Source: an uncultured Coriobacteriia bacterium (lineage in GTDB: Bacteria > Actinomycetota > Coriobacteriia > Coriobacteriales > QAMH01). From it: a stretch of DNA of 35,676 bases. Each line of letters starts with the position of its first letter. Position 1 is the first letter of the stretch. The position numbers and the translations under genes are program-made. Under the pieces are notes generated by a model, which was given only the letters and a program-made list of their open reading frames with translations, searched no databases and was not told the DNA's origin. The DNA lies in NCBI GenBank assembly GCA_949879855.1, contig CATLBX010000004.1, forward strand, positions 1-35,676. The letters are read 5' to 3'. Below are positions 3,489 to 17,258 of the stretch, piece by piece.

Positions 3489-3788
3489 TTACTCGGCCTT
3501 GCTTGCGGGAGCCTTTTCCGTCTCGACAACGACCTCTTCGGCCGCCGCCTCCTCGACAGGCTTGGCCTGGGGCGCGGGCTCTGCCGATGCGTCCGCCTCG
3601 ACCTCGGCCGGCTTCTCGGCATCGTCCTTCTTCTTGCCGTCCATGCCGTCACGCAGGCTCTTGAACGTCCTGCCGATGGCATTGCCCAGCTTGGGCAGGT
3701 TCTTGGGGCCGAAGATGAGCAGAACCACAATCAGAATGATGATTAGCTCAGGAACGCCAATGCCTCCCAGGAAGGGAATCCTCATCAT
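3489..3788 (-). CDS. tatA: Twin-arginine translocase TatA/E subunit
   Basis: GIGVPELIIILIVVLLIFGPKNLPKLG TM helix, hinge and amphipathic helix, with an acidic tail. RBS GGAGG. Confidence 0.93.
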   Translation of the reverse strand: MMRIPFLGGIGVPELIIILIVVLLIFGPKNLPKLGNAIGRTFKSLRDGMDGKKKDDAEKPAEVEADASAEPAPQAKPVEEAAAEEVVVETEKAPASKAE

Positions 3789-3864
3789 ATCCTCCAAGCT
3801 TTGCATATGTGCACTGCGCGAAGAGCGCGTACACGACTTATCACGTATCGCACCATAATAAAAC

Positions 3865-3898
3865 AAAGGGGCTTCCGTCGAATGCAGAAACCCCTTTC
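3865..3898 (-). terminator. Intrinsic terminator downstream of tRNA-Pro
   Basis: Minus strand GAAAGGGGTTTC...GAAGCCCCTTT hairpin followed by GTTTTATT. Confidence 0.7.
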
Positions 3899-3906
3899 TG
3901 GCAATC

Positions 3907-3983
3907 TGGTCGGGATGACTGGATTTGAACCAGCGACCTCTCACTCCCGAAGCGAGCGCTCTACCAAGCTGAGCCACATCCCG
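3907..3983 (-). tRNA. tRNA-Pro(CGG)
   Basis: 77-nt cloverleaf CGGGATG...CATCCCG-A-CCA, anticodon loop TTCGGGA, T-loop GGTTCAAATCC. Confidence 0.97.
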
Positions 3984-3998
3984 AATGCGCGGTGATAG

Positions 3999-4007
3999 AT
4001 TCTAGCA
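3999..4007 (-). promoter_or_regulatory. Extended -10 element for tRNA-Pro
   Basis: TGCTAGAAT (TGn-TAnnnT) about 15 nt upstream of the tRNA. Confidence 0.5.
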
Positions 4008-4049
4008 GATTATGCGTGCGGTGCGAGGGATTTTTGTATCAACTCTCCC

Positions 4050-6731
4050 CTACCTCACCCCGTACCAGCCGAAGTCCTCGTAACGCCAGCCGATGCTCAC
4101 CAGATGGTCGCGCTCGACGTCGCTCGTGGTGTAGTGGTGGCTGCCGGAGTTGTTCCTCCATGCGGTGGGGTCGACGGTGGGGTTGAACAGGCGGTGCAGT
4201 CCCACTCCCTGATTGTCGTCGGAGTACCAGCCGATGCCCTCGTCGGACCAGCCCACGGAGATGAGGTGGTCGCGCTCCACGACACTCGTGGTGTAGTGGT
4301 GGTCGGTGCCCGAGTAGAGACGATAGACCGGGGTGGCCGAGATGACCGGGGCGGTCCAGGCCTCGCCCTCGTAGAGCCAGCCGGCGGCCACGATGTTCTC
4401 GATTTCCGAATAGTGGGCGGTGTAGAAGTGCTCGCCGGAGTTGGAGTTGTAGGCGCGGTACATCACCTGGGTGGCCACGGGATCGGGCGTGGCGGCGCCG
4501 GGATCGTCGGGAGCGCCGGGTTTGTCGATGGCGAAGGACACCGTGCGCGTGCCCTGGTAGTTCCCGATTCCCGTCACGGTCGCGGTGGCGGTTCCCGCAT
4601 CCACGTTGTTCGCGTAAGCAACCTCATAATCGGCGCCTTGTGCAAGCACGCCCCCATCCAACATGACCGTCAGCACAGGCATGATGGGCTGGCCCGTCCA
4701 CACCTGCGTTGCAACAGGCTCGATAATCGCATCGCCGATGTCGGCCCTCGTGATGTCGAACGTGCAGCCGATGCTCGTCTGCGCCTTGAAAATCCCATCG
4801 CTTGCAGCCGCAACGGTCACGTGCGCCGTGCCGACGGACGTGTTATCGGCATAGGAAAGCGAGAGGCCCAGGTCCTCGGCGGAATCGGTGCCGAACGTCC
4901 AAGTCTCCCCCGTCACCGGATACGTGAGAGTGACGTACGGCCTGCAGCCGTTGACTCGGTAGGCCTGGTTAGACGCAACGGAGAGCTTGCACGTGCCGAG
5001 GTCGATGAAGTCGACATCGTTCGTGAACGCCTTAATGCGAGCAACGGAGGGCGCTTCGTCATTTTCCATGTACGCGGTGTTTCCCGCGAGGTCGAACCAC
5101 GTCGCGGCGTCGTTGGAACGAACGAAGCTCTGGTTGGGTGACGACGCACTCGTGAAATGCACGAACGTCGTCGTGTCGCCGTACTTGTCACCGGCACCGT
5201 AGGTCGAATCGACGGTGTAGTACACGTCGTCGCCATTGGCATGGGAGAGGGTGAAGACGACGGAGTACTTCGAGCCTTGCGCCACGCGCACGGGTTCGGG
5301 CAGTTCGACCATGTAATAGCCCTGGTACGTCATCTTGCCCGTCACGGGCATGGCAAGGGCGGGGGCGCCGCTCGTGGGATTGGCGGCGTCCTTCACGTCC
5401 GTGTAGATCTGGACGCTGTAGTCGACGTTGACATCGACCAGTTGCGACAGGGACACGGCTGTGACCTCCTCCGCACCGTCCTCGTTGGCGTTGGCGGTGA
5501 AGACGTTGGCGATGCTCCCGCCGGAGACGACCCTGTTGGCGCAGTTTCCGGAAGTGCCGTCGTACTGGTAGTTGTGATCGTATGCATCGACAGGACCGGC
5601 GAAAAACGCGGTGACGAACGAATCCGTCATGGACAGGTCCTCGTAGGACATCCAGAAATACCCGCCATCGCCCCATTCCTCGCCCCAGCTATTGCGCATG
5701 AGCCACGCGCCGTTCTTGGGCAGGGGCTCGCCATAGGTAACGAAGTTGCTCGCGGGATAGTCATCATCCCATCCGACGATGACGACATCGTGGTTGATGC
5801 CGGGCTTCTCATAGTTGTAATAGACGTTCGTGGTCTCGTTGAAGTAATTGAGGTCATCCATGTACATGCTGTGCAGGACGGCTCCGTAGTCGTAAATCGC
5901 CTGCTTGACGTCGTTTTGATCCTCATTGGAAATCATGCGCGTGCCCTCGAGGAGATAGGAATTCTCCGTGTACGCCATGCCGGCCTCCAGCGCGGTGGCG
6001 TCGGTGAAGGCGTCACGGGCCTCGAAGAACTCCGGGGTGAAGTCCTGACCGGTCGAGGGATAGTACTCATATTCGAACTCGTCGTAGGCGTCGAGCAGCT
6101 CCTTCATAGGCGCCACGGCCTCGTCGACGGCGCCCGCCCACTTCGCGAGCGTGCCGGTAGCCAACATCGCATTGCCGCCGACCCCCAGGTACGGATCGCC
6201 GGTGCCGTCAAACCACGCCCCCGAAAACGCGGACCCCCTGGGCGTGTTGTAGTCGCCTACCGTGCCGCCCAGGGGATCGACCGCCTCGTGGTACGAAAAG
6301 TACCCGAGGTGGCGCTCGGAGAGATCGAGCTTGGCGGCGTCAGCGCCATCCCTCTTGATGAGCGACGATTCCATGCAGGCGATGGTGGCATAGGCCCAGC
6401 AGAATCCGGAAGCACCCTGGTCCTTGACGGGAGTCACGTAACCTCGCGCACGAGAGCTGTAGGAACGCGGCAGCGCCGCCTGGGCCGTGAGGGAATCGTC
6501 GTTGGCGTCGTGGATGCTGAGCGCGGGAAGACCGTCGTCGATATGCCCGAGTCCGCGGGGACCGACCGTGGTCGCAATGGACGTCACAGCCGTGTTCGCC
6601 TGCACAGGTTGATCTGGCAGGGCGGCGAAGGCGGATGCCGGCGAGAACGCGAAGGCCAGCGCAAAGGCGAGCAGAGCGCTCATCGCAAGTCGTGACAAAC
6701 GGGGGCGTTTGGTGCCAGAAGCGCTGTGCAT
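4050..6731 (-). CDS. Secreted papain-family (C1A) cysteine protease with lectin-like domain, Ig-like repeats and C-terminal DUF5648-like repeat module
   Basis: Signal peptide (…ASAFA). Catalytic motifs VKDQGASGFCWA, NHDVVIVGWDD and MRNSWG. Y..N...GTAT repeats. C-terminal MYRAYN..SGEHFYT repeats. RBS AGGAGG before ATG 6731. Confidence 0.88.
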   Translation of the reverse strand: MHSASGTKRPRLSRLAMSALLAFALAFAFSPASAFAALPDQPVQANTAVTSIATTVGPRGLGHIDDGLPALSIHDANDDSLTAQAALPRSYSSRARGYVTPVKDQGASGFCWAYATIACMESSLIKRDGADAAKLDLSERHLGYFSYHEAVDPLGGTVGDYNTPRGSAFSGAWFDGTGDPYLGVGGNAMLATGTLAKWAGAVDEAVAPMKELLDAYDEFEYEYYPSTGQDFTPEFFEARDAFTDATALEAGMAYTENSYLLEGTRMISNEDQNDVKQAIYDYGAVLHSMYMDDLNYFNETTNVYYNYEKPGINHDVVIVGWDDDYPASNFVTYGEPLPKNGAWLMRNSWGEEWGDGGYFWMSYEDLSMTDSFVTAFFAGPVDAYDHNYQYDGTSGNCANRVVSGGSIANVFTANANEDGAEEVTAVSLSQLVDVNVDYSVQIYTDVKDAANPTSGAPALAMPVTGKMTYQGYYMVELPEPVRVAQGSKYSVVFTLSHANGDDVYYTVDSTYGAGDKYGDTTTFVHFTSASSPNQSFVRSNDAATWFDLAGNTAYMENDEAPSVARIKAFTNDVDFIDLGTCKLSVASNQAYRVNGCRPYVTLTYPVTGETWTFGTDSAEDLGLSLSYADNTSVGTAHVTVAAASDGIFKAQTSIGCTFDITRADIGDAIIEPVATQVWTGQPIMPVLTVMLDGGVLAQGADYEVAYANNVDAGTATATVTGIGNYQGTRTVSFAIDKPGAPDDPGAATPDPVATQVMYRAYNSNSGEHFYTAHYSEIENIVAAGWLYEGEAWTAPVISATPVYRLYSGTDHHYTTSVVERDHLISVGWSDEGIGWYSDDNQGVGLHRLFNPTVDPTAWRNNSGSHHYTTSDVERDHLVSIGWRYEDFGWYGVR

Positions 6732-6899
6732 GGGTTCCTCCTGCAGGTCGTGCCGGGGGCATGGACGCGTAGGAGCATATTTTGGCAGAGAGCAGGAGAG
6801 AAGAACGGGCACGTAAGGTCCCTTTCGCGCCGAGGGTGCGAAGGATGTCGCATGAGGGAGGGTCTATACGCCTCGAGCCTCCTGCCCCACGTCGCATGG

Positions 6900-6929
6900 G
6901 CCGAAGTCCTCGTAGCGCCAGCCGATGGA
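6900..6929. repeat. 30-bp exact direct repeat of 9082-9111 (3' end of the DUF5648-like module)
   Basis: GCCGAAGTCCTCGTAGCGCCAGCCGATGGA at both positions. A near-copy lies at about 4068-4095. Confidence 0.9.
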
Positions 6930-6933
6930 CCCG

Positions 6934-7809
6934 CTAGTTACCCGCGAGGTCCTTCCATTTGGCGCCATCCCCGACGCTGTCGGCAAGTTCGCGCAGATGC
7001 TCGTTGTTCGCAGCAGCAGCGCCGCGCAGGTCGACCTTGGCTCCCCTGTCCCTATACCAATCCGTGCCCTCGAAGTAATCCTGAAGGTCGGGATTGCTGA
7101 AATGGTGCCCCTCGCGCGCAAAGGGCTCGTTCCAGGCGATGCAAATCTCGGCCGGGGTCAGGCCCATGGCCTTGAGCTCGCCCATCCCGTATTCACGCGT
7201 GCTCGAGTCCGGCAGCACGTAGCCATCGGAATCGCGCCGCACGGTGCCCGTGAGCTTTTCGCCCGAAGCCGTGTAGACCACGAGCGTAACGGTGTCGGGA
7301 CTAGAAGGCGCATCCATAATGGAGGCCGAGGGATACGACGATGAGGAGGACGGCGCGCTGTTTTGCGGGACGAGCTGGGAGAACGCGTTCACGCCCCCTG
7401 CCGCACAGCCGCCGACGCCGAGGGTCGTGCATCCTCCGACCACCAGTACGAGCAGGAGGATCACGTCGACGAAGGAGATGACCGTGCCCGCGATGGCAAG
7501 ACCCTTCGGGGTCTTGGTCAGGCCAATGAGGGACAGGACGGCACCCAGAATCCAGAGCAGCCAGCCCGCCACCGGCACCCACGAAAGGAACAGCCCGAGC
7601 AAAGCGCACACAAAACCGGCTATGCCAATTCCGTTGCCTCCCGGCTGGGAAGCCTGTTGGTCTGGGGCGACCGGCTCGAACGGCTTGGTGGCATCGGGAC
7701 GCCGTGGCATGAAGGCTGGATCGTCAGCCGGCCTGTCGACCTTGGTTCCGCAGTGCTGGCAAAAGGCAGCGTCATCTGGAATATGCTTGCCGCAACGCGT
7801 GCAGTACAT
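6934..7809 (-). CDS. Zinc-ribbon / two-TM / YARHG-like domain membrane protein
   Basis: CTRC...CQHC zinc ribbon, hydrophobic helices (DUF4190-like), Ser-rich linker, NEPFAREGHHF..DLQDYF..TDWY (YARHG variant). RBS GGAGG. Confidence 0.75.
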   Translation of the reverse strand: MYCTRCGKHIPDDAAFCQHCGTKVDRPADDPAFMPRRPDATKPFEPVAPDQQASQPGGNGIGIAGFVCALLGLFLSWVPVAGWLLWILGAVLSLIGLTKTPKGLAIAGTVISFVDVILLLVLVVGGCTTLGVGGCAAGGVNAFSQLVPQNSAPSSSSSYPSASIMDAPSSPDTVTLVVYTASGEKLTGTVRRDSDGYVLPDSSTREYGMGELKAMGLTPAEICIAWNEPFAREGHHFSNPDLQDYFEGTDWYRDRGAKVDLRGAAAANNEHLRELADSVGDGAKWKDLAGN

Positions 7810-7865
7810 GATGGTTCCTCCCCGATGAAAAGTTGCTGGTATCAAAATACCATGCAAGGGTGGGA

Positions 7866-8282
7866 CTAGGAGAGGTGAGGGACGGCTTCCCGCGCCGTCA
7901 TCTTGGGAACGAACGACTTGCGAAACGCTTTTTTGTCATAGCTGATGATGGCGTCGACCTGCAACGCCTCGGCTACGCTGCGGATAAGGCCGTCCTCGTA
8001 GTCGGGCTCGTCGGAATCGAGCGCGGCAAACACCTGCAAACTCGTCAGGTCGACCAAGTCGAACGTCTCGGCAATGTCGCGGATCGACGCGCGCGCCTCC
8101 CCCTCGCGCATGCAATGGGAGTGAAGGGCATAGTAGATTTCGTTCAACGAAGAAGAGAGCGCATAGCACGATGCCTCCTGCTCAAACGCAGCGTGAAGCA
8201 AGTTCGACACATCATCATGAAATGGGGATGAGGGATACACCCAATACAAAAGGGCGTTGGCGTCAAAGAGAAGCGATTTCAC
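7866..8282 (-). CDS. PIN-domain (VapC-like) toxin
   Basis: LLFDAN, SLNE, DYED and SYD acidic residues. Overlaps the upstream antitoxin. Confidence 0.85.
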   Translation of the reverse strand: MKSLLFDANALLYWVYPSSPFHDDVSNLLHAAFEQEASCYALSSSLNEIYYALHSHCMREGEARASIRDIAETFDLVDLTSLQVFAALDSDEPDYEDGLIRSVAEALQVDAIISYDKKAFRKSFVPKMTAREAVPHLS

Positions 8283-8562
8283 GGGCCCCGCGCTCCTTCC
8301 CCTCGCGCAGCAAGTCGTCCGCCGTCTTGCCCCGCGGCCACGGAGCCCGCGTCTTGCGAGAGGCGATTCGCTCCTCGGCCTCGCGCAGACGCGTCAGACG
8401 ATCCGCCGAATCATCGTAGACGGCGGTGATGACGACGACGCCCTTCCTGGGCGAATCGAGACGCAGGGAGGCGTCCGGCTCGATGCAGGCTTCCTGGCGC
8501 AGCGTCTTGGGCAGCAGCACGGCCATGCTGTTGCCAACTTTTGTGAGCGTGGACACGGTCAT
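8263..8562 (-). CDS. AbrB/MazE-type (VapB-like) antitoxin
   Basis: N-terminal LTKVGNSMAVLLPK swapped-hairpin signature. RBS GGAG. Confidence 0.85.
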   Translation of the reverse strand: MTVSTLTKVGNSMAVLLPKTLRQEACIEPDASLRLDSPRKGVVVITAVYDDSADRLTRLREAEERIASRKTRAPWPRGKTADDLLREGKERGAREIASL

Positions 8563-8584
8563 AATCACTCCAATCGTCGGGAGT

Positions 8585-8602
8585 ATTATGACGCGTTATA
8601 AT
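8585..8602. promoter_or_regulatory. Palindromic operator / promoter of the AbrB-PIN operon
   Basis: ATTATGACG-CGTTATAAT, an 18-bp palindrome with one mismatch, overlapping -10-like hexamers just upstream of the antitoxin. Confidence 0.55.
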
Positions 8603-8648
8603 TACGATAACCCTATGGGAACTGCCGCCTATGCGCAATGGGGCAACC

Positions 8649-8911
8649 ATGACCAACCTTGAGTCGTATCTGAAAAAACGCGGGATTACCGAAAAGCAGA
8701 TGGAAGAGGCACGCGGGCAAACAGAAGCCCCGCAAGTGATGACGCGTGCTGCGAGACACATCAAGAAATAGATGAAGAGCTGTTGAAGGCCGAAATGGAA
8801 ACCTATCACGGTATCATGCGAGGTTACGAACAGTATCTCAATGGTGAAGCGACCCCTGCTGAGGAAATGTTCGCGAAAATACGAGCTGATCGCGGATGGG
8901 ATGAAGAGTGA
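8649..8911 (+). pseudogene. Antitoxin-like gene remnants (two frames)
   Basis: 8649-8771 MTNLESYLKKRGITEKQMEEAR… resembles an XRE/HigA-type N-terminus. 8753-8911 has no start and reads …IMRGYEQYLNGEATPAEEMFAKIR…, resembling an antitoxin C-terminus. AT-richer than the host. Confidence 0.4.
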
Positions 8912-9009
8912 GGCGACGAATCATGATTCATGAAATCCAAACCGGCATGATGCAGCACAAACTAATACAAGCGTAGTGTTTTTAGCAGTATTCCAGCGAA
9001 ACAAACCTG

Positions 9010-9034
9010 AGGCCGCCCATACGGACGGCCTTTT
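9010..9034. terminator. Hairpin terminator between converging units
   Basis: AGGCCGCCC-ATAC-GGACGGCCT followed by TTT on +, and by a GTTTGTTT tract on -. Confidence 0.55.
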
Positions 9035-9063
9035 CGTTGAGTTTCGCGGGCCAGCAAGCCTCG

Positions 9064-12000
9064 CTACTTCACGCCGTACCAGCCGAAGTCCTCGTAGCGC
9101 CAGCCGATGGAGACCAGATGGTCGCGCTCCACGTCGGAGGTGGTGTAGTGATGCGAGCCGGAGTTGTTGGTGGGGGCGCTCGGGTCGACGTTGGGGTTGA
9201 ACAGGCGGTGAAGCCCGATGCCCTGGGCGTCGTCGGAGTACCAGCCGATTCCCTCGTCGGACCAGCCCACGGATATGAGGTGGTCGCGCTCCACGACACT
9301 CGTGGTGTAGTGGTGGTCGGTGCCCGAGTACAGGCGGTAGACCGGGGTGGCAGAGGTCACCGGCGCCGTCCAGGCCTCGCCCTCGTAGAGCCAGCCGGCG
9401 GCCACGATGCTCTCTATCTCGGCGTAGTGCGCCGTGTAGAAGTGCTCGCCGGAGTTGGGGTTGTAGGCGCGGTACATCACCTGGGTGGCCACGGGTCGGG
9501 CGTGGCGGCGTCGGGATCGTCAGTACCAGGCTTATCCGTGCTCGGCTTGTCGGTGGTGCCGGGGTCGTCGGTGCCGGGGGTGTCCGGCTTCGGGTCGTTG
9601 GGCTTGGGCGTTGCAGCCTTCTTAATCTGGAACGTTACATTCTTCTCGCCCGTGTAGTTGCCCTTGCCCGTCACAATACAGGTTGCCGTTCCCTCGTTCA
9701 CGTTATTCTCATACGAAAGGGTGTAGTCGGTGCCCTTCGTCAGCGTCTGGGAATTGTATTTGACAACCGGCTCGGGAGTGAGCGCGGAGCCGGTATACGT
9801 TTGCTGAGCAATGGCGTCAATTGTTGCGTTCGCAATATCGGCCGGCTGCCCTTCCTCTGCAGGAGGGGCAACGATATCGAACTCGACTTCCTTCTGCCCA
9901 GAATACGCGCCCTTGCCTTTGACGATAGCCTTCGCCTTTCCAATAGCGCCGTTATTGAAGTATTCGACTGTATAGTCGTCACCATAAACGAGCAGATCAT
10001 CGCCCAGCCAGACCATAATGCCCGGCTCGACGGGCTTCCCATAATAGAAGGGAGCTTCCGAAACGCCCGCCTCCGCATTCGCAAGATTGTTCGTAGCGGT
10101 GGCATTTACGTCAATCTCCGAAATGGAGCTATCGTTCATGTCCGCCGCACAGGCAATCGCACGAATCTTCGTGGGCTGCATAACCGTTATGCCCTCGTCA
10201 GGATTGTATGCAGCGGTTGTATCCTGTGCGGGTTCCTCGCTTTCCTCATCGCTTGCTTGCGGCATAAAGAAATTCGCGAACGCCTCAAACGGGGCCAGAA
10301 ACGAAACGGGCTCTGCAACGGGAGCGATGGGGTCGCTTCCATCCGTTGTGTAGTAAATCTTTGCGCCCTCGGTCGGCGTCTCGAGAAAGACCTTAGTGCC
10401 TCCCTTGGCAACATAACCCTCTGCCAGTTCCACCGAAACATACGGTGAAGTCACTGTCCCCTCATAGGCAAACAGCGGCTTGACGACCAGATCACTCGTT
10501 ACGGACCACCATGGCGTTTCGCTCGTCGTACCCCAGCTTACAAACTCCATGCCATCAGCCGCCGGATTCGTTTCGGGAAGCTGCGCAGCCTTGCCATGCT
10601 CAACTTGTACGGTCTTGAAAGCCGCGCCCTTTGCGTCAACAAACATGACCGTGTGCATCTTGGGTTCGTATACCGCGGTCACCACCATGTTTCCAGTCAC
10701 CGTCGTAGTTCCGTCCAGGAGGGCATCCCAACCCTTGAAGGTGTAGCCAAAGTCGTCACCCCTGTCGGCTTGCTCCATTGGGGGCGTGAGAGTCTGCCCA
10801 TAAGCGCATGTTTCCAGAAATATTTCCTCTCCCTCATGGTCTACCCATGCCACAGTACACGTGCGCGGAGAGAAGAGTGCATTGATAACCAAGTTATTGT
10901 TCACGCCCGAAGACGTTCTGCTCCACCCCAAGAACGTGCTTCCCTGTCGCTCGGGGGCAGCCGGAACAACAGCATCCTCACCCTCGTTGACAAGCTGCTC
11001 GCTCACAGCCACGATGGAGCCATCCGCGTCCTCATACTGGTACGTCACCTTGTACTGCGGGGTCGGAGCCTTGATAGTGGCAACGTTGACGAGCCCCGTT
11101 GAGCCCTTGACGCCAAGGGCAACGATGAAGTCGCCACTCTCCACGCTCGGGTCCTGTCTCGGAATGAACTCGAAGGAATAGGTATTGTCGGCACCAATAA
11201 TGGTCTGACCGATGAACTGAACCTGGTCTTCGTTGGGGTCGGAGTTGGTCACGTTGTAGACCATGATAGTGGCTTCTTTGCCACTGAGGTCCGCTCCCGC
11301 AGCGAGCTTGCCGGAGATGCTTTGCTTCGTGCCGGACTTGTCCTCCTCGCCCTGAATCTGACCGGGCCGCTTTGTGCGATACCGATACGCGGTACGATTC
11401 TCGACCTCGCGATCAGGTGATGCAGATGCCTCCTCAAAGGCCCAATCAGTCCAATCTCCCCATTTCTGATAACCGTAGGTAATCGTTTTATCGCGCGTTT
11501 GATAGGTGTAGGTCGTGACGATAGATTTTGTCCACCAGTAGGACTGACCTTCACGCCTATGCGAACATGAGCTGTACGGTCCGTGCAAATCCCATGCCTT
11601 ACCGCCCTTATCGGCGAACTTGTTGGGGCAGGCCGCCATGGGAGAATTGAGCGTTATCTCATGATATGTACAGTTAGAACCATAGGCTTTTGAATCCTGA
11701 TTCTGGCATCGGTCGTAGTAATTGCACCAGCGATAGTACGTATACTTGGTCGACTGCCCAACAATCTGCAACGTATCATTCGTTCCCGGTTTGCTCGTCG
11801 TGTACTTATAGCCACTCCAAGCGCCGTACGATGTCGTGTCCTTGCTGTTGCGATCCCAACCCGCGAGAGAGGGCGCGGTGCTCGTCGTGAATTGCCTATC
11901 GCGATACCTGTACTGCACGGCCTCTTCTACCTCGACCGTATCCGACGCAGCGGGCTTCTCGGTCGACCACTCGGACCAGTCGGTGAAGTAGAAGTTATCC

Positions 12001-12165
12001 ATCGTGACAATTTCCTTTTGTACCGCGGCAGAATATGCGCCGCCGGTACGGTAATTGCCATCGAGACCAACCACTTCTACCTCTGCGATAGAGGCAACGT
12101 AGTTTCCGTTGTATTTCAAGGTCACCGACTTTTCGATTTCACTGTCAGTACCGATTTCGATAGAG
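9064..12165 (-). pseudogene. 5'-truncated, frameshifted multidomain surface protein (WSEW-type repeats, InlB B/Flg_new-like repeats, CHB_HEX_C/Fn3-like domain, Ig-like repeats, DUF5648-like tail)
   Basis: Domain-like sequence begins abruptly at the REP boundary (~12165), with no signal peptide or start. Motifs P..EG.TF.GW and TPTEGAKIYYTTDGSDP. One base is missing at ~9493-9496 relative to the paralogous junction at ~4478-4484, which splits off ORF 9064-9492. Confidence 0.75.
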
Positions 12166-12280
12166 TGGAGAGATTTCTCGACTCCGGCGCTGCGCGCCTT
12201 CGCTCGAAATGACAAGGGGAAGTGTACCTGCGGCGCTTCGCTCGAAATGACAGGAAGGAGTGTACCTACGGCCGCTTCGG
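12166..12280 (-). repeat. REP-like hairpin cluster 1 (full unit 12166-12222, half unit ~12229-12254, degenerate unit to ~12280)
   Basis: Minus strand TGTCATTTCGAGCGAAGGCGCGCAGCGCCGGAGTCGAGAAATCTC. 54/57 nt identical to 13927-13983. Confidence 0.88.
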
Positions 12281-12291
12281 TCAGGACGTCC

Positions 12292-12639
12292 TTACTCCTC
12301 GAAATGCTCCTCGCAGAAGGATCTGAGCGCGGGAAGGTAGTTCTCCATGGCATCCCAGGCAATCTCGGGGTCGAAGTTATCATAGCCGTGGACCAGATGG
12401 CAGCGCATGCCATAGATGGCGCGCCAGTCGATTTGTGGATGCATATCCCTGAACTCTTCGGAAATCCGACCAACCGCCTCGCCAATCTGGATGAGACACA
12501 GCGAGCAGCTATCCTGGTACGGAACGCTACCCGCAAACACCCCGTAGTCTGCCCCAAAATAGCCACGGGTTTCGTCGAGACGCGCGCAGTAGCGCAGAAT
12601 CACGCCAAGCTGCTCGTTATCGCGCTCGGGTTGCCGCAT
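12292..12639 (-). CDS. HepT-like HEPN ribonuclease toxin (DUF86)
   Basis: IQIGEA, W..I.GMRCHLVHGY (R-x4-H-x-Y). Overlaps the upstream MNT gene. Confidence 0.9.
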   Translation of the reverse strand: MRQPERDNEQLGVILRYCARLDETRGYFGADYGVFAGSVPYQDSCSLCLIQIGEAVGRISEEFRDMHPQIDWRAIYGMRCHLVHGYDNFDPEIAWDAMENYLPALRSFCEEHFEE

Positions 12640-13084
12640 AGAGCAGCACCTCATCTTGCTTGATCTTGTCGAGGAAGCGTTTGCTGGCTCCTGCCGTCGT
12701 AACCACATCGACCTTACGCCCCAGGCGCTGTGCCAGCTTTTCCTGGAAGTCGAGGACCTGCATGCCCCTAATCTCTCCCTTGTCCAGCAGGATATCGACA
12801 TCGCTCGTCGCCGTGGCCTCGTCACGCGCATAGGAACCGAACAGTGAGACCTGCTGGGCACCGAACTCCTCGGCAAGGGAGATCACGTGATATTCGATGG
12901 TCTCGCGCGATAGCGGGGATTTATCGTCCAAAGCCCGCACCAGAAGCCCCTCGATGTAGCTCGACCGCGTCGTCACCGCGCGTCCCGCGAGTCCAGCCGC
13001 CTTATCGGCTGCGGCCGCTCGTGCAACCTCGGCATCAATGCGGTTTAGCGTCTCGTCCTTGAGATAGAGGGAAATCGTGGGCAT
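12617..13084 (-). CDS. MntA-like nucleotidyltransferase antitoxin with N-terminal RHH domain
   Basis: FGSYAR…SDVDIL (GS-x10-DxD) and LGRKVDVV. N-terminus TISLYL..ETLNRID…TRSSYI. RBS AAAGGAGG. Confidence 0.88.
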   Translation of the reverse strand: MPTISLYLKDETLNRIDAEVARAAAADKAAGLAGRAVTTRSSYIEGLLVRALDDKSPLSRETIEYHVISLAEEFGAQQVSLFGSYARDEATATSDVDILLDKGEIRGMQVLDFQEKLAQRLGRKVDVVTTAGASKRFLDKIKQDEVLLYAATRAR

Positions 13085-13126
13085 GGGGCCTCCTTTCTAT
13101 TGCATTATATAATAGATATAGAGGGC

Positions 13127-13174
13127 GAGATTTCTCCACTTCGGCGCTTCGCGCCTACGGTCGAAATGACAGGG
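13127..13174 (-). repeat. REP-like hairpin, unit 2
   Basis: Minus strand TGTCATTTCGACCGTAGGCGCGAAGCGCCGAAGTGGAGAAATCTC, immediately after the LytTR stop. Confidence 0.88.
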
Positions 13175-13176
13175 AG

Positions 13177-13608
13177 CTACACCCCGAGCTCTCGTAGCCT
13201 TGCGCGGACTTCCTTCGCGTAGCGCTTGCTCACGGGAACCTTCGCACCCGACCCGAGCGCCAGTTCGAGCGAACTCACGGTCGCGATACGCGCCGAGTTC
13301 ACGAGAAAGCTGTTATGACAGCGAATGAAGCTTGCCGGAAGCTTGGCGATGATGTCCTTCATGGTCGAGTACATCTGGAACACGCCGGCATCTGCGTGGA
13401 CGAACACCTTGCGCTTCACGCTCTCGACGTAATCGATGGTATCCACGGGCACGAGATGCATCTCGCGACCGAATTTGATGATGAGCTTGGAAGGTATAGG
13501 CGCTTCATCGGGATTACCCGCACGTTGAGTGCGCTGCGTGGCGCCCTGTTTGAGTGTCTGCGTCTTCCGCGACCTTGTTGAATTGTCGCGGATTGTTTCT
13601 GATTTCAT
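13177..13608 (-). CDS. Stand-alone LytTR DNA-binding domain protein
   Basis: IDYVES.KRKV, FIRCHNSFLVN and VPVSKRY LytTR motifs. No receiver domain. Start uncertain. Confidence 0.85.
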   Translation of the reverse strand: MKSETIRDNSTRSRKTQTLKQGATQRTQRAGNPDEAPIPSKLIIKFGREMHLVPVDTIDYVESVKRKVFVHADAGVFQMYSTMKDIIAKLPASFIRCHNSFLVNSARIATVSSLELALGSGAKVPVSKRYAKEVRARLRELGV

Positions 13609-13642
13609 ACATTCAAAATAGCACAGTCAATAGCATGCACTC

Positions 13643-13861
13643 ATGCAGAAGTCTGAAATTAGAAACAAAATCGGTTTGCGAATCAAGGACCTTCGTAAGC
13701 AACACGGACTTACGCAAGACCGGTTTGCCCTCATGACGGGAATCAACCGCAGCTATCTCGCAGACATCGAGAAGGGCAATCGTAATTTCGGCTTCGACAC
13801 ACTCGAGAAGATCGTCGAAGGGTTTGGGATATCGTACTCGGAGTTCTTCCACGGGTTGTGA
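13643..13861 (+). CDS. XRE-family HTH regulator
   Basis: IGLRIKDLRKQHGLTQ…RSYLADIEKGNRN, 72 aa. Confidence 0.9.
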   Translation: MQKSEIRNKIGLRIKDLRKQHGLTQDRFALMTGINRSYLADIEKGNRNFGFDTLEKIVEGFGISYSEFFHGL

Positions 13862-13886
13862 CTGGCGAAGCGACTGGGACAACGAA

Positions 13887-13919
13887 AAGAGCGGAGCGAG
13901 ATTACTCGACTCCGCTCTT
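13887..13919 (+). terminator. Hairpin downstream of the XRE gene
   Basis: AAGAGCGGAGCGAG-ATTA-CTCGACTCCGCTCTT followed by a T-rich tail. Its right arm resembles the REP end. Confidence 0.55.
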
Positions 13920-13926
13920 CTTGTGT

Positions 13927-14014
13927 TGGAGAGATTTCTCGACTTCGGCGCTTCGCGCCTCCGCTCGAAATGACAAGGGGAAGGCCCTGCGCGCCTCCGC
14001 TCGAAATAACAGGG
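13927..14014 (-). repeat. REP-like hairpin cluster 3 (full unit 13927-13983 plus half unit ~13987-14014)
   Basis: Minus strand TGTCATTTCGAGCGGAGGCGCGAAGCGCCGAAGTCGAGAAATCTC. The half unit abuts the NlpC/P60 stop at 14016. Confidence 0.88.
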
Positions 14015-14015
14015 C

Positions 14016-14561
14016 TTACGGCCTGACGATCTTGCCGCGGATGGCCTCGACACGCACGCGCTCACCGGATTGCGGCGCATGAATCATCTGACCGTTGCCG
14101 ATGTAGAGACCGCAATGACCGGGGCTGCATGCCACGACATCGCCAGGGCGCGGGTCGCCCACCGCGGGCATGCCCCAGAACGAATACGACGTGTACGCAT
14201 GGCCGTACCTGCCGGTAAGCGCGTAGCTCACCAGGCCAGAGCAATCAAAGCCACTGGGGCTCGACCCACCCGACCTGTACGGCACGCCCAGCATGGACTC
14301 GGCACGGCGGACGGATTCGGGCTTGGCGGCCTCGATGGCCGCGATGCGCTCTTCCTCGATCTGGGCGGCGGTCTCGTCGATCTGCACGCGGCAGGTCGCA
14401 ATCAGCTCGAGCTGATCAGACTCGTCGACATGGGCCGCCTCGGACCCGTCGGGCGAGAAGGACTGTTGCAGGGGAACGGCGAATGCCGCGGGGCAAAGGG
14501 CGAGGACGAACAGAGTGGACAGCGCAATGCCAAGGACCGACTTACGGTTATGTGAATGCAT
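14016..14561 (-). CDS. Secreted NlpC/P60 (C40) peptidase, short form
   Basis: Signal peptide, GVPY, FDCSGLV, GHCGLY and MIHA. Confidence 0.88.
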   Translation of the reverse strand: MHSHNRKSVLGIALSTLFVLALCPAAFAVPLQQSFSPDGSEAAHVDESDQLELIATCRVQIDETAAQIEEERIAAIEAAKPESVRRAESMLGVPYRSGGSSPSGFDCSGLVSYALTGRYGHAYTSYSFWGMPAVGDPRPGDVVACSPGHCGLYIGNGQMIHAPQSGERVRVEAIRGKIVRP

Positions 14562-14725
14562 GAGAAAAAAGATTCCTAGCGCCCGCAATACACATGGTGC
14601 TCAATTTGTAGACAGTAATTGCAGCAGGCAAGGAGCCATACTACCCTAAGATTCGCGGCCTCCATAATCTGCGCACATTTCGCGCATATAGGCCCATGTG
14701 AACGGCATCATCCCCGCTAGATGGC

Positions 14726-15883
14726 CTAGAAGCGCAATGCTGCAGTCCATCCTCCACGACAGCTCTCGACGACGCCCCACCGCGTTCCCATGGCCTCGAT
14801 GCAGCTGATGCCGCCCGTGGAAATACCCACGTGACCGGGCTTGTAGAGCACGTCGCCGGGCTGGGCCTCGCTCGGGCTGAACCGTGCCGAGGCGACCGCG
14901 TAAAGCGATTCGGTATAGGACGGCAGTGAAATGCCGATCTGGCGATAGCACCAGGCCACGAATCCCGAGCAGTCGAACGCGTCGGGGCCCTTCGCGCCCC
15001 AGACGTACGGATGCCCCAGCTTCGAGTACGCGTAATCGAGCACGCCACCGTTCGTGGGGGTGCTCGGTGCTGCCCCCGACCCGGACGAGACCTCCGTGAT
15101 GGAGCTGGAGCCACCCGAAGCGCTGGGAGACCCGCCCACGTCGCCGTCGGTCGTGATGCCCGACCCGCCCGTATCGGGAGAGGGGGCCGGGGTGCTGGGC
15201 ACCACCTGCACCGCGCTCGGGACGAACTCCTGCGGCGCGCGGGCGCTCGCCTGGGCCTCGGCGGCCTCCTGCTCGGCAAGGATCTGGCGGTACTCCGCGC
15301 TCAGGTTGTTGTAGATCCTGTCGTACTCGCTTTGCTTGGCGAGCACCTGGTTCATGTAGGCCTCCGCCGAGGAGAGCTGGTCGGCCGCGCGCTGCTGCTG
15401 CGCGATAAGCTCGCCTTGCGCGGACTCGAGCGTCGCCTTCGTGACCTTGGTGCTGGCGACGAGGTCGGCGTCTTCGGCATTGAGGGCGTTAAGGGTGTCC
15501 CACACGGTCGCGAAGTCCTCGAAGGTGCTAACGCCCAGGAGCACGTCGAGATACGAGGTCGAACCCGAGCGGTACATGGCCGTCGCGCGCACGTCGAGGC
15601 GTTCCTGCAAGCTGCCGATGCGCTCCGACATCTCGGTGATGGTCGCCTGCGCCTCCTCGACACGTGCCGTGGCGTCATCGTAGGCATCCATGGCCTGGTG
15701 GTAGCGGTCGCCGGCGGCGGAGACGTCCTCGGCCATGGCCTCGAGTTGGGCCTTGACGGTACGGACCTCGGCCTGCTTCTGCGCGGCCGTGACACCGAGT
15801 GCCTGCGTGGGATTGATGGTGCATAACGCGCCCAGGGCGACGAACGAGCCGACAAGTGCCCTGCGATTGAGAATAGTAGACAT
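14726..15883 (-). CDS. Coiled-coil (PcsB/CwlO/RipC-like) NlpC/P60 peptidoglycan hydrolase
   Basis: Signal peptide, coiled coil with MYRSG…YLDVLLG…FEDF, S/G linker, GHPYVWGA, FDCSGFV, GHVGI. Confidence 0.9.
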   Translation of the reverse strand: MSTILNRRALVGSFVALGALCTINPTQALGVTAAQKQAEVRTVKAQLEAMAEDVSAAGDRYHQAMDAYDDATARVEEAQATITEMSERIGSLQERLDVRATAMYRSGSTSYLDVLLGVSTFEDFATVWDTLNALNAEDADLVASTKVTKATLESAQGELIAQQQRAADQLSSAEAYMNQVLAKQSEYDRIYNNLSAEYRQILAEQEAAEAQASARAPQEFVPSAVQVVPSTPAPSPDTGGSGITTDGDVGGSPSASGGSSSITEVSSGSGAAPSTPTNGGVLDYAYSKLGHPYVWGAKGPDAFDCSGFVAWCYRQIGISLPSYTESLYAVASARFSPSEAQPGDVLYKPGHVGISTGGISCIEAMGTRWGVVESCRGGWTAALRF

Positions 15884-17178: not shown

Positions 17179-17258
17179 AAAACGCAGTTCCGCACCACAA
17201 TATCTTGATATGCGCAGGCTCGAAAACACTACGCACCCCTGTCGATACAACAGTGGCG

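Follow-up and report, generated by a model that had tools for sequence, protein, structure and literature searches.

Repeats and genes at the locus

The window considered here is a stretch of 35,676 nucleotides from an uncultured Coriobacteriia bacterium (contig CATLBX010000004.1), in which a series of short repeats lies among the genes of a variable island. The repeat family is given the name REP1, and the genome that holds the window, where it is contig C4 of a 1.87-Mb, 226-contig assembly (61.8% GC, 91% completeness), is referred to as G000. The window represents a local patch of a family that resembles the repetitive extragenic palindromic (REP) sequences and bacterial interspersed mosaic elements (BIMEs), and which belongs to a genus of rodent-gut Coriobacteriia.

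A repeat search finds three full REP1 units and two clear half units in the window, all in a single orientation (Table 1). The full units appear as 57-nt copies, where that at 12166-12222 serves as the reference and those at 13123-13179 and 13927-13983 are 79% and 95% identical, respectively, and the 38-nt half units begin at 12228 and 13987. With up to one mismatch allowed, the 14-mer CGSTCGAAATGACA has five matches in the window, on one strand and all inside 12201-14011, against a mean of 0.08 in shuffled windows, none of 100 shuffles reaching five. The three hairpin elements and half copies in one orientation that a first-pass annotation of the sequence had described are confirmed by both searches. 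Apart from a decayed half unit at 17239-17256, there is no further REP1 copy elsewhere in the 35.7-kb window.

The arrays were also said to start a few to about a dozen nucleotides from stop codons. This stands for the NlpC/P60 stop (14016) and the LytTR stop (13177), which are 4 nt and 5 nt, respectively, from the ...ATGACA end of the adjacent unit. The HepT stop (12292) lies 39 nt past the end of the second half unit, and the sequence between, 12253-12291, reads as a third, decayed half unit. The arrays surround two accessory modules, XRE with LytTR and MNT with HepT, gene identities with which Pfam agrees, and the codon usage of this cargo is atypical, with a GC content at third codon positions (GC3) of 0.66-0.79 against a genome median near 0.84. 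It was from this arrangement, of three co-oriented arrays each after a stop codon, that integron-like logic had been proposed, in which the hairpin is a recombination site, a gene plus its downstream hairpin is a cassette, and a site-specific enzyme acting in trans captures or shuffles the cassettes.

Table 1. Genes and repeat features in and beside the variable island, in window coordinates.
Feature	Position	Strand	Basis
Large surface protein gene, Flg_new + CHB_HEX_C domains, within the variable island	9477..12125	-	Pfam, ORF calls
Full REP1 unit; minus-strand reading TGTCATTTCGAGCG...GTCGAGAAATCTC	12166..12222	-	Reference copy of repeat search; scored full in genome count; 14-mer scan
Clear half unit to 12252, then decayed half unit 12253-12291 up to HepT stop	12223..12291	-	Repeat copy 12228-12265; 14-mer at 12239-12252; decayed part by reading
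HepT-like ribonuclease toxin gene	12292..12660	-	PF01934, E 4.3e-17
MNT-type nucleotidyltransferase (MNT/Polbeta) antitoxin gene	12617..13084	-	PF18765, PF01909
Full REP1 unit, 5 nt past LytTR stop; counterpart behind LytTR in G001, G004, G005, G012	13123..13179	-	Repeat search, unit count, 14-mer scan
LytTR DNA-binding protein gene	13177..13608	-	PF04397, E 4.1e-23
XRE-family helix-turn-helix gene, divergent from LytTR gene	13643..13861	+	PF12844, PF01381
Hairpin GAGCGGAG / CTCCGCTC with T-rich tail, 3' of XRE gene; terminator-like by reading only	13889..13927	+	Sequence reading
Full + half REP1 unit, 4 nt past NlpC/P60 stop; 88-nt indel versus G002	13927..14015	-	Repeat search, unit count, 14-mer scan; alignment with relatives
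NlpC/P60 gene; conserved anchor on one flank of the variable island; in 10 of 11 relatives' loci	14016..14588	-	PF00877
Decayed half unit in a spacer of the conserved backbone; site holds 1 to 4 intact units in relatives	17239..17256	+	Alignment of 12 genomes

Architecture of the repeat unit

A REP1 unit of 45-47 nt consists of TGTCATTTCGA-S-CG, a GC-rich apical stem-loop and S'-GAGAAATCTC, where ATTTC in the left arm pairs with GAAAT in the right and S pairs with S'. Its conserved ends are TGTCAT and AATCTC. The usual REP1 locus is made of two such units placed tail to tail around a partly palindromic linker, with the TGTCAT ends facing outward and often with surplus half units stacked at the outer ends of the doublet. 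In G000 this outward-facing inverted doublet is present in 40 of the 64 clusters that have a full unit, and single-orientation clusters like those of the window make up only 21 of the 64. The two units of a doublet usually differ in subtype, such that S is C or G and the apical stems are unlike.

The pairing is evident from covariation, which was counted directly because RNAalifold on the mixed 107-unit alignment gave no consensus. Between GTCAT[Y]TCGA and GAGA[R]ATC there are 84 T-A pairs, 5 C-G pairs and no mismatch in G000, and S with S' gives 48 G-C pairs, 40 C-G pairs and one mismatch; the apical stems contain many compensatory variants. Simple doublets are predicted to fold as long single-stranded DNA hairpins, all 16 of 16 better than their shuffles (z -2.6 to -6.8, median -5.3).

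The ends of the doublet are identical, and the conserved sequence breaks off sharply at ...ATGACA in 30 of the 30 ends examined. Such outward identical termini bring to mind a miniature inverted-repeat transposable element (MITE) with terminal inverted repeats of about 45 nt, in which a DDE transposase would recognise the TGTCAT ends, and the same tail-to-tail doublet is found in Hymenobacter. Like DDE-moved MITEs, the REP1 doublets measure about 115-160 nt, carry terminal inverted repeats, lie between genes and have undergone lineage-specific bursts. They differ, however, in the absence of a target-site duplication, none being seen either at doublet ends, where the flanks show only a weak, inverted RGGG, or between a filled and an empty site (G000 versus G002), and in the absence of a matching transposase, since rve, DDE_Tnp_1, IS110 and the TnpB zinc ribbon all gave no match in the 91%-complete G000. 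Moreover, half units and single arms are common in REP1, and neither half-unit arrays nor lone units are expected from the cut-and-paste of a whole element. Movement as a MITE is consequently very unlikely.

Distribution across the genome

REP1 extends throughout G000. The arm motif TCGAAATGACA has 134 exact occurrences, and simple scoring rules give 175 REP1 units, of which 107 are full and 68 half, grouped into 80 clusters that are spread over many contigs; these numbers, along with doublets that fold as long hairpins, bear out the resemblance to REP-type palindromic repeats that had been noted from the window. Genes were taken from a codon-usage open reading frame (ORF) caller written for the analysis, which predicts 1764 genes at 89% coding density, and 69 of the 80 clusters are free of any predicted ORF. 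Tandem spacers hold 43 clusters, convergent spacers 17 and divergent spacers 7, with 13 at contig ends, against 1203 tandem, 167 convergent and 168 divergent spacers in the genome. Convergent spacers are thus enriched (17 of 67 placed clusters versus 167 of 1538 spacers). The clusters also clump, 23 of 64 having a neighbour within 3 kb, compared with a mean of 9.4 (maximum 25) over 1000 random placements.

Cluster edges are close to stop codons: the median distance to an adjacent one is 30 nt, and 29 of the 67 distances are no more than 15 nt. Adjacent start codons are farther off (median 94 nt; 3 of 52 at 15 nt or less). The REPs of Escherichia coli are often close to stop codons too, and they affect mRNA stability and translation. 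Could REP1, then, be a functional element of the 3' untranslated region, in which RNA hairpins end or stabilise transcripts or tune translation termination, and which has spread by selection and not by mobility? The closeness to stop codons, the enrichment in convergent spacers and the maintenance of the stem by covariation would all suit this role. Nevertheless, no strand rule is seen. The GTCAT end is nearest the stop codon in nine single-orientation clusters of G000 and the other end in four, and among 140 listed hairpins from many phyla (described below) the corresponding numbers for the gene 3' end are 40 and 36, with 64 left unplaced by crude ORF calls. No T tract is seen after the REP1 stem, and an Rfam search of 11500-14800 gave no match at the hairpins. 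That the repeats are present or absent at orthologous sites, and number only 0-5 in six genomes of the genus, fits a dispensable element. Spread through such a function is improbable.

Which genes lie beside the clusters? Pfam was run on the first 40 of the 96 cluster-neighbour genes, in contig order, and a family was assigned for 35. The housekeeping functions among these 40 include DnaB, a LeuA-like synthase, acetyl-CoA carboxyltransferase, a SerA-like phosphoglycerate dehydrogenase, a thiamine pyrophosphate enzyme, ribosomal protein L20, aspartate aminotransferase, a Cys/Met pyridoxal phosphate enzyme, an HtrA-like protease and a P-type ATPase. The other neighbours include eight DUF5648 surface proteins, one GmrSD-like protein and several regulators. 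The 99 cluster-adjacent genes have a GC3 of 0.847, compared with 0.836 in the other 1461 (p = 0.69), and their coding score is likewise no different, so that REP1 shows no association with foreign genes. Ten genes that are bracketed by REP1 clusters include no transposase, and represent reductases, a methyltransferase, transporters, an amidase, ApbE and a HicB-like protein.

With about 80 sites, and with housekeeping neighbours as frequent as accessory ones, these therefore look like ordinary REP-type repeats and not like a means of gene capture. The expectation that copies would concentrate at the boundaries of variable genes is not borne out; they lie behind conserved core genes, both genome-wide and, in relatives, between the backbone genes of this very locus. 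The integron-like reading is largely refuted by the genome-wide distribution, in which core genes adjoin the clusters and the inverted doublet, not the co-oriented array, is the usual form. There are genuine likenesses to the attC sites acted upon by IntI, in that a gene is followed by an imperfect hairpin, the copies in the window are co-oriented, and the folded single strand is likely the active form. The differences are more telling. REP1 is dispersed and has no IntI, its units are conserved in sequence (79-95% identity in the window) and not in structure alone, and the modules are pairs of genes, one divergent and the other a toxin-antitoxin (TA) pair with, at least in the latter case, its own upstream control region, a conserved AT-rich stretch, as opposed to single promoterless ORFs. 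Together with the repeat-free cargo and the repertoire of recombinases described below, these features render integron-like capture extremely unlikely.

Related genomes and the variable island

Counts of the 14-mer CGSTCGAAATGACA in 13 genomes of the genus separate into 189, 133, 117, 115, 114, 79 and 73 on the one hand, and 5, 4, 4, 2, 0 and 0 on the other. In the order, the full-unit pattern is found in 7 of 121 genomes, G000 included, of which six are of this genus and one other has a single copy, and reversed-pattern controls gave no match. A looser pattern had no match in a sample of 300 other genomes of the phylum. Near-identical REP1 units are present in two further records (L096 and L139). 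REP1 is a family that has expanded recently in one clade of the genus.

The locus was compared with eleven loci of the same genus. The backbone from 22810 down to the NlpC/P60 gene (14016) is conserved, as is the gene at 3489-3806, and the region 3806-14016 forms a variable island, the content of which is different in nearly every relative and draws on DUF5648 or Flg_new surface proteins, a TA pair and XRE+LytTR. In G007 and G009 the NlpC/P60 gene is followed directly by the 3489 homologue, such that the island is empty and repeat-free. G001 (94% identical) has the gene order of the window as far as the HepT repeat, where its contig ends, and in G004 and G005 a repeat, XRE+LytTR and a second repeat are followed by unrelated genes without MNT-HepT. 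In G002 and G011 XRE+LytTR is present at the locus and is repeat-free. A homologue of MNT-HepT (68% identical) is found at a different location in the repeat-rich G003 (locus L053), where it has the same AT-rich stretch, TTGCATTATATA, upstream of the MNT gene, and no flanking repeat.

The repeats themselves are equally changeable. Beside NlpC/P60 the array is an 88-nt indel between G000 and G002, lying between a conserved hairpin and the stop codon, with 13 unrelated nt in its place in G002, and in G001 a single unit takes the place of the full and half units of G000. Within the backbone, the spacer 17259|16022 holds anything from a half unit up to four units in seven genomes, with a decayed remnant at 17239-17256 in G000, and the spacer 22810|21626 holds repeats in four genomes. 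REP1 arrays are therefore gained and lost by the unit, decayed, and present or absent at orthologous sites, including between conserved backbone genes, and repeats and cargo vary independently among relatives.

Do gains and losses of genes break at the repeats, as had been proposed? In several relatives they do not, as the repeat-free modules in G002, G011 and G003 and the empty islands of G007 and G009 make clear. One breakpoint does coincide, at the edge of the unit behind LytTR, where homology between G000/G001 and G004/G005/G012 ends, an observation that also counts in favour of the integron-like reading; the repeats may therefore have a role in local rearrangement. Such a role requires no dedicated enzyme if co-oriented copies simply feed RecA-type recombination and in this way drive gain, loss and replacement in the island. 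The breakpoint speaks for this, the single unit of G001 is consistent with recombination or slippage, and there are differences both in the unit number at the backbone site in seven genomes and, in nearly every relative, in the gene content from NlpC/P60 to the gene at 3489-3806. However, the island varies also in the relatives that are repeat-free here (G002, G007, G009 and G011), and no pair of genomes differs cleanly by two repeats against one while sharing identical flanks to left and right. Units of 45-57 nt are, in addition, short for efficient homologous recombination. As the driving force of the island's variation, passive homology is rather unlikely.

Logan contigs contain apparent joints from 12221 to 13144 (X1 and X4; side 28) and from 12186 to 13124 (X2; side 20). 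These are short-sided and equally explained by other REP1 copies, and therefore provide no evidence for excision. One X1 contig covers 11799-13268 in the arrangement of the window, although X1 may be the source sample.

Candidate enzymes and two further repeat families

The absence of an integrase from the window, as first noted, holds, in that the five Phage_integrase (tyrosine recombinase) matches in G000 are all on other contigs. An integron integrase was not found in the genome, the best TIGR02249 match being 75.8 bits against a cut-off of 265. G000 does have two genes of the Y1_Tnp family (PF01797), resembling the REP-associated tyrosine transposases (RAYTs), and these are named RAYT1 and RAYT2.

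RAYT1 has on either side a hairpin of another family, REP2, in G000 and likewise in the syntenic G005 orthologue, and RAYT1 with REP2 is a classic REPtron for this second repeat family. The gene (G000 C2:61870-65202; loci L001/L066, and L068 in G005) sits between a ComF-like gene and hypB. REP2 is a perfect hairpin with an 11-bp stem, GAGACAAATAC ... GTATTTGTCTC, with 139 arm matches in G000 and a variant hairpin in G005, and one copy is seemingly inside the ComF-like reading frame. RAYT2 (G000 C3:18500-24500; L077) has units of a third family, REP3 (GGGTCTGTCCCC), directly upstream in six genomes. REP3 has 122 sites in G000, and appears to be regionally confined, as the sites listed for G005 all but one fall in 243-437 kb, a stretch of ~200 kb around the RAYT2 gene at 380 kb.

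The first-pass annotation had suggested a search for a transposase, nuclease or recombinase gene flanked by the repeat; neither RAYT-like gene is flanked by REP1 itself. No REP1 unit lies within about 1.5 kb of either RAYT-like gene in G000, and the arrangement is the same in relatives. RAYT2 orthologues (at least 70% identity) are present in six of the seven REP1-rich genomes; RAYT2 and REP3 both track nearly the same clade as REP1, and co-occurrence therefore cannot assign the enzyme. An enzyme of the HUH/RAYT type acting in trans is nonetheless a live candidate for mobilising REP1. The genus, in which seven genomes have 73-189 copies and six have 0-5, is a clean natural experiment for matching repeats to the enzymes that move them, given that it contains three repeat families alongside two RAYT-like genes.

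The core hairpin in other phyla

Species-representative genomes were scanned for the core of the REP1 unit as GTCATTYCGASCG, a gap of 5-35 nt and GAGRAATCTC. At least 120 stretches match, from many phyla. The matches listed include, by record title, Clostridia, Bacteroidota, Verrucomicrobiota, Chloroflexota, Planctomycetota, Bdellovibrionota, candidate-phyla-radiation groups, Coriobacteriia, Bifidobacterium and others. A rough estimate of chance expectation, about 67 matches, applies to the entire 596-Gb collection and not to the share that was scanned. The gap is 5 nt, giving a 28-nt hairpin, in 51 of the first 97 hairpins. Among the 140 hairpins listed, the Y/R pair is C-G in 68, T-A in 70 and other in 2 (138 Watson-Crick), and the S/S' pair is G-C in 101, C-G in 35 and other in 4 (136 Watson-Crick). 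The cross-phylum matches are not random, and their conservation is the part of this work worth following up. The distribution is also patchy, in that the hairpin is found in many phyla yet in none of the 300 other genomes sampled in its own phylum.

Hymenobacter jeollabukensis has 39 copies of the hairpin, many as tail-to-tail doublets about 92 nt apart. At four loci from other phyla the hairpins are likewise without an Rfam match, and a RAYT-like ORF lies within 8 kb in 2 of 120 listed loci, in one of which the hairpin is about 250 nt away. In a record of Edaphocola flava (L209, 1989-2153) a tail-to-tail doublet of variant hairpins adjoins a Y1_Tnp gene, and one of the two has arms ATATC/GATAT, a further compensatory variant of the stem. 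In a record of an uncultured Clostridia bacterium (L143, 1154-2350) there are two minimal hairpins, and a match to Gut-1 RNA follows 112-122 nt after each, scoring 45.7 and 45.6 bits and so falling below the gathering score of 50. Hairpin and Gut-1 may here form a composite repeated element.

REP superfamilies tagged GTAG and CGTC have been described (Di Nocera et al. 2013, PMC3733652), and the main text of that paper presents the CGTC-tagged REPs as a superfamily in many species which 'apparently lack a dedicated transposase'. The main text of PMC6006769 divides TnpA_REP into subclasses, some of them without REPs, and treats BIME as equivalent to REPIN (REP doublet forming hairpins). GTCAT and Actinobacteria go without mention in the main texts of both papers. 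None of the 20 main texts listed, out of 173 papers, contains a REP1 arm 13-mer, and the two with an 11-mer match concern cancer cells. A tentative suggestion, for which the odds are less than even, is that the core hairpin GTCATTYCGA-S-CG ... S'-GAGRAATCTC defines a sequence-conserved, horizontally spread repeat superfamily beside the GTAG- and CGTC-tagged REPs, with a partner in trans that is possibly no RAYT. Distant phyla share the hairpin, its covariation is near-perfect, Rfam has no family for it, and no transposase is consistently linked to it. Should these features hold, the hairpin would point to a widespread, uncharacterised system of structure-specific DNA or RNA recognition, and the many small spurious ORFs called across such repeats would be explained.

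Interpretation and relation to known repeats

REP families are usually species- or genus-specific, and the core sequence of REP1, which is common to many phyla, departs from this. Among known systems REP1 comes closest to the REP/BIME-RAYT system of Escherichia coli and the REPINs of Pseudomonas, as set out in the main texts of PMC6006769 and PMC3733652. Both consist of short imperfect palindromes that occur between genes in tens to hundreds of copies; in both, two inverted copies make up the basic unit and can form one long hairpin, arrays vary in unit number, several repeat families share a genome, and Y1/HUH genes are present. REP1 differs in that its doublet units are usually of two subtypes, that its hairpin has no GT[AG]G tag at the base, and that a RAYT gene flanked by the repeat is missing. 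It shares the orphan state of the CGTC-tagged REPs, which the main text of PMC3733652 likewise leaves without a dedicated transposase, and differs from them in its conserved end, (T)GTCAT and not CGTC.

The repeats of the window thus belong, with high probability, to a non-autonomous REP/BIME (REPIN)-like family that extends genome-wide, of which they are copies in a single orientation, and they are no dedicated gene-capture system. REP1 would spread through single-stranded DNA by means of an enzyme in trans, either of the HUH/Y1 (RAYT-like) type or another that is structure-specific. New copies would tend to arise close to existing ones, and in this way three clusters would come to occupy adjacent spacers of the variable island. 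Where copies are co-oriented, their homology would then allow the intervening segment to be deleted or replaced, an ordinary side effect of their presence. For annotators the implication is that 'gene plus hairpin' is not to be read here as integron logic, and in this respect the result is a deflating one for the window.

Several observations weigh against REP1 being a family of this kind. The hallmark tags of known REPs, GT[AG]G or CGTC, are absent as a family feature, GTGG being found only in the S' = G subtype, where it is part of the stem. REP1 has no REPtron, because RAYT1 is tied to REP2 and RAYT2 to REP3, and with G000 91% complete in 226 contigs the gene for its enzyme could be unassembled. 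In other phyla, Hymenobacter jeollabukensis has a single weak Y1_Tnp match with no flanking hairpins, and a record of Bifidobacterium simiiventris has no PF01797 match despite its 19 hairpins. The window clusters, described as hairpins at the outset, are not strong hairpins when taken singly. Their single-stranded DNA folding energy is no better than that of shuffles on either strand (z -0.49 to +0.16), and the predicted fold is limited to a 5-bp apical stem with short pairings between the arms. The breakpoint at the unit behind LytTR is likewise awkward, and the simplicity of the ORF caller limits the gene calls on which the genomic context depends.

Other features of the locus

The hairpin at 13889..13927 has a loop that resembles the left arm of the repeat unit, and it is kept in the repeat-less G002. 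It was not reported by the terminator scan because the loop limit of the scan is 8 nt and the loop here is 13 nt. The promoter and terminator scan of the window gave chance-level results. The sole promoter-like match upstream of the MNT-HepT operon is at 13109-13138 on the minus strand, where the -35 hexamer TGGAGA is inside a repeat unit; with one promoter found and 0.9 expected, this repeat-borne hexamer is therefore a hint only.

Surface protein genes recur in the surroundings of the repeats. The gene at 9477..12125 has no homologue at the locus in relatives, with the possible exception of G001, whose contig ends there. The window genes at 4050-6683 and 9064-9492 have a 300-nt repeat in common, with 87% identity, and elsewhere in G000, at C1:51-68 kb, paralogous surface proteins that end in DUF5648 follow one another, with REP1 doublets between them.

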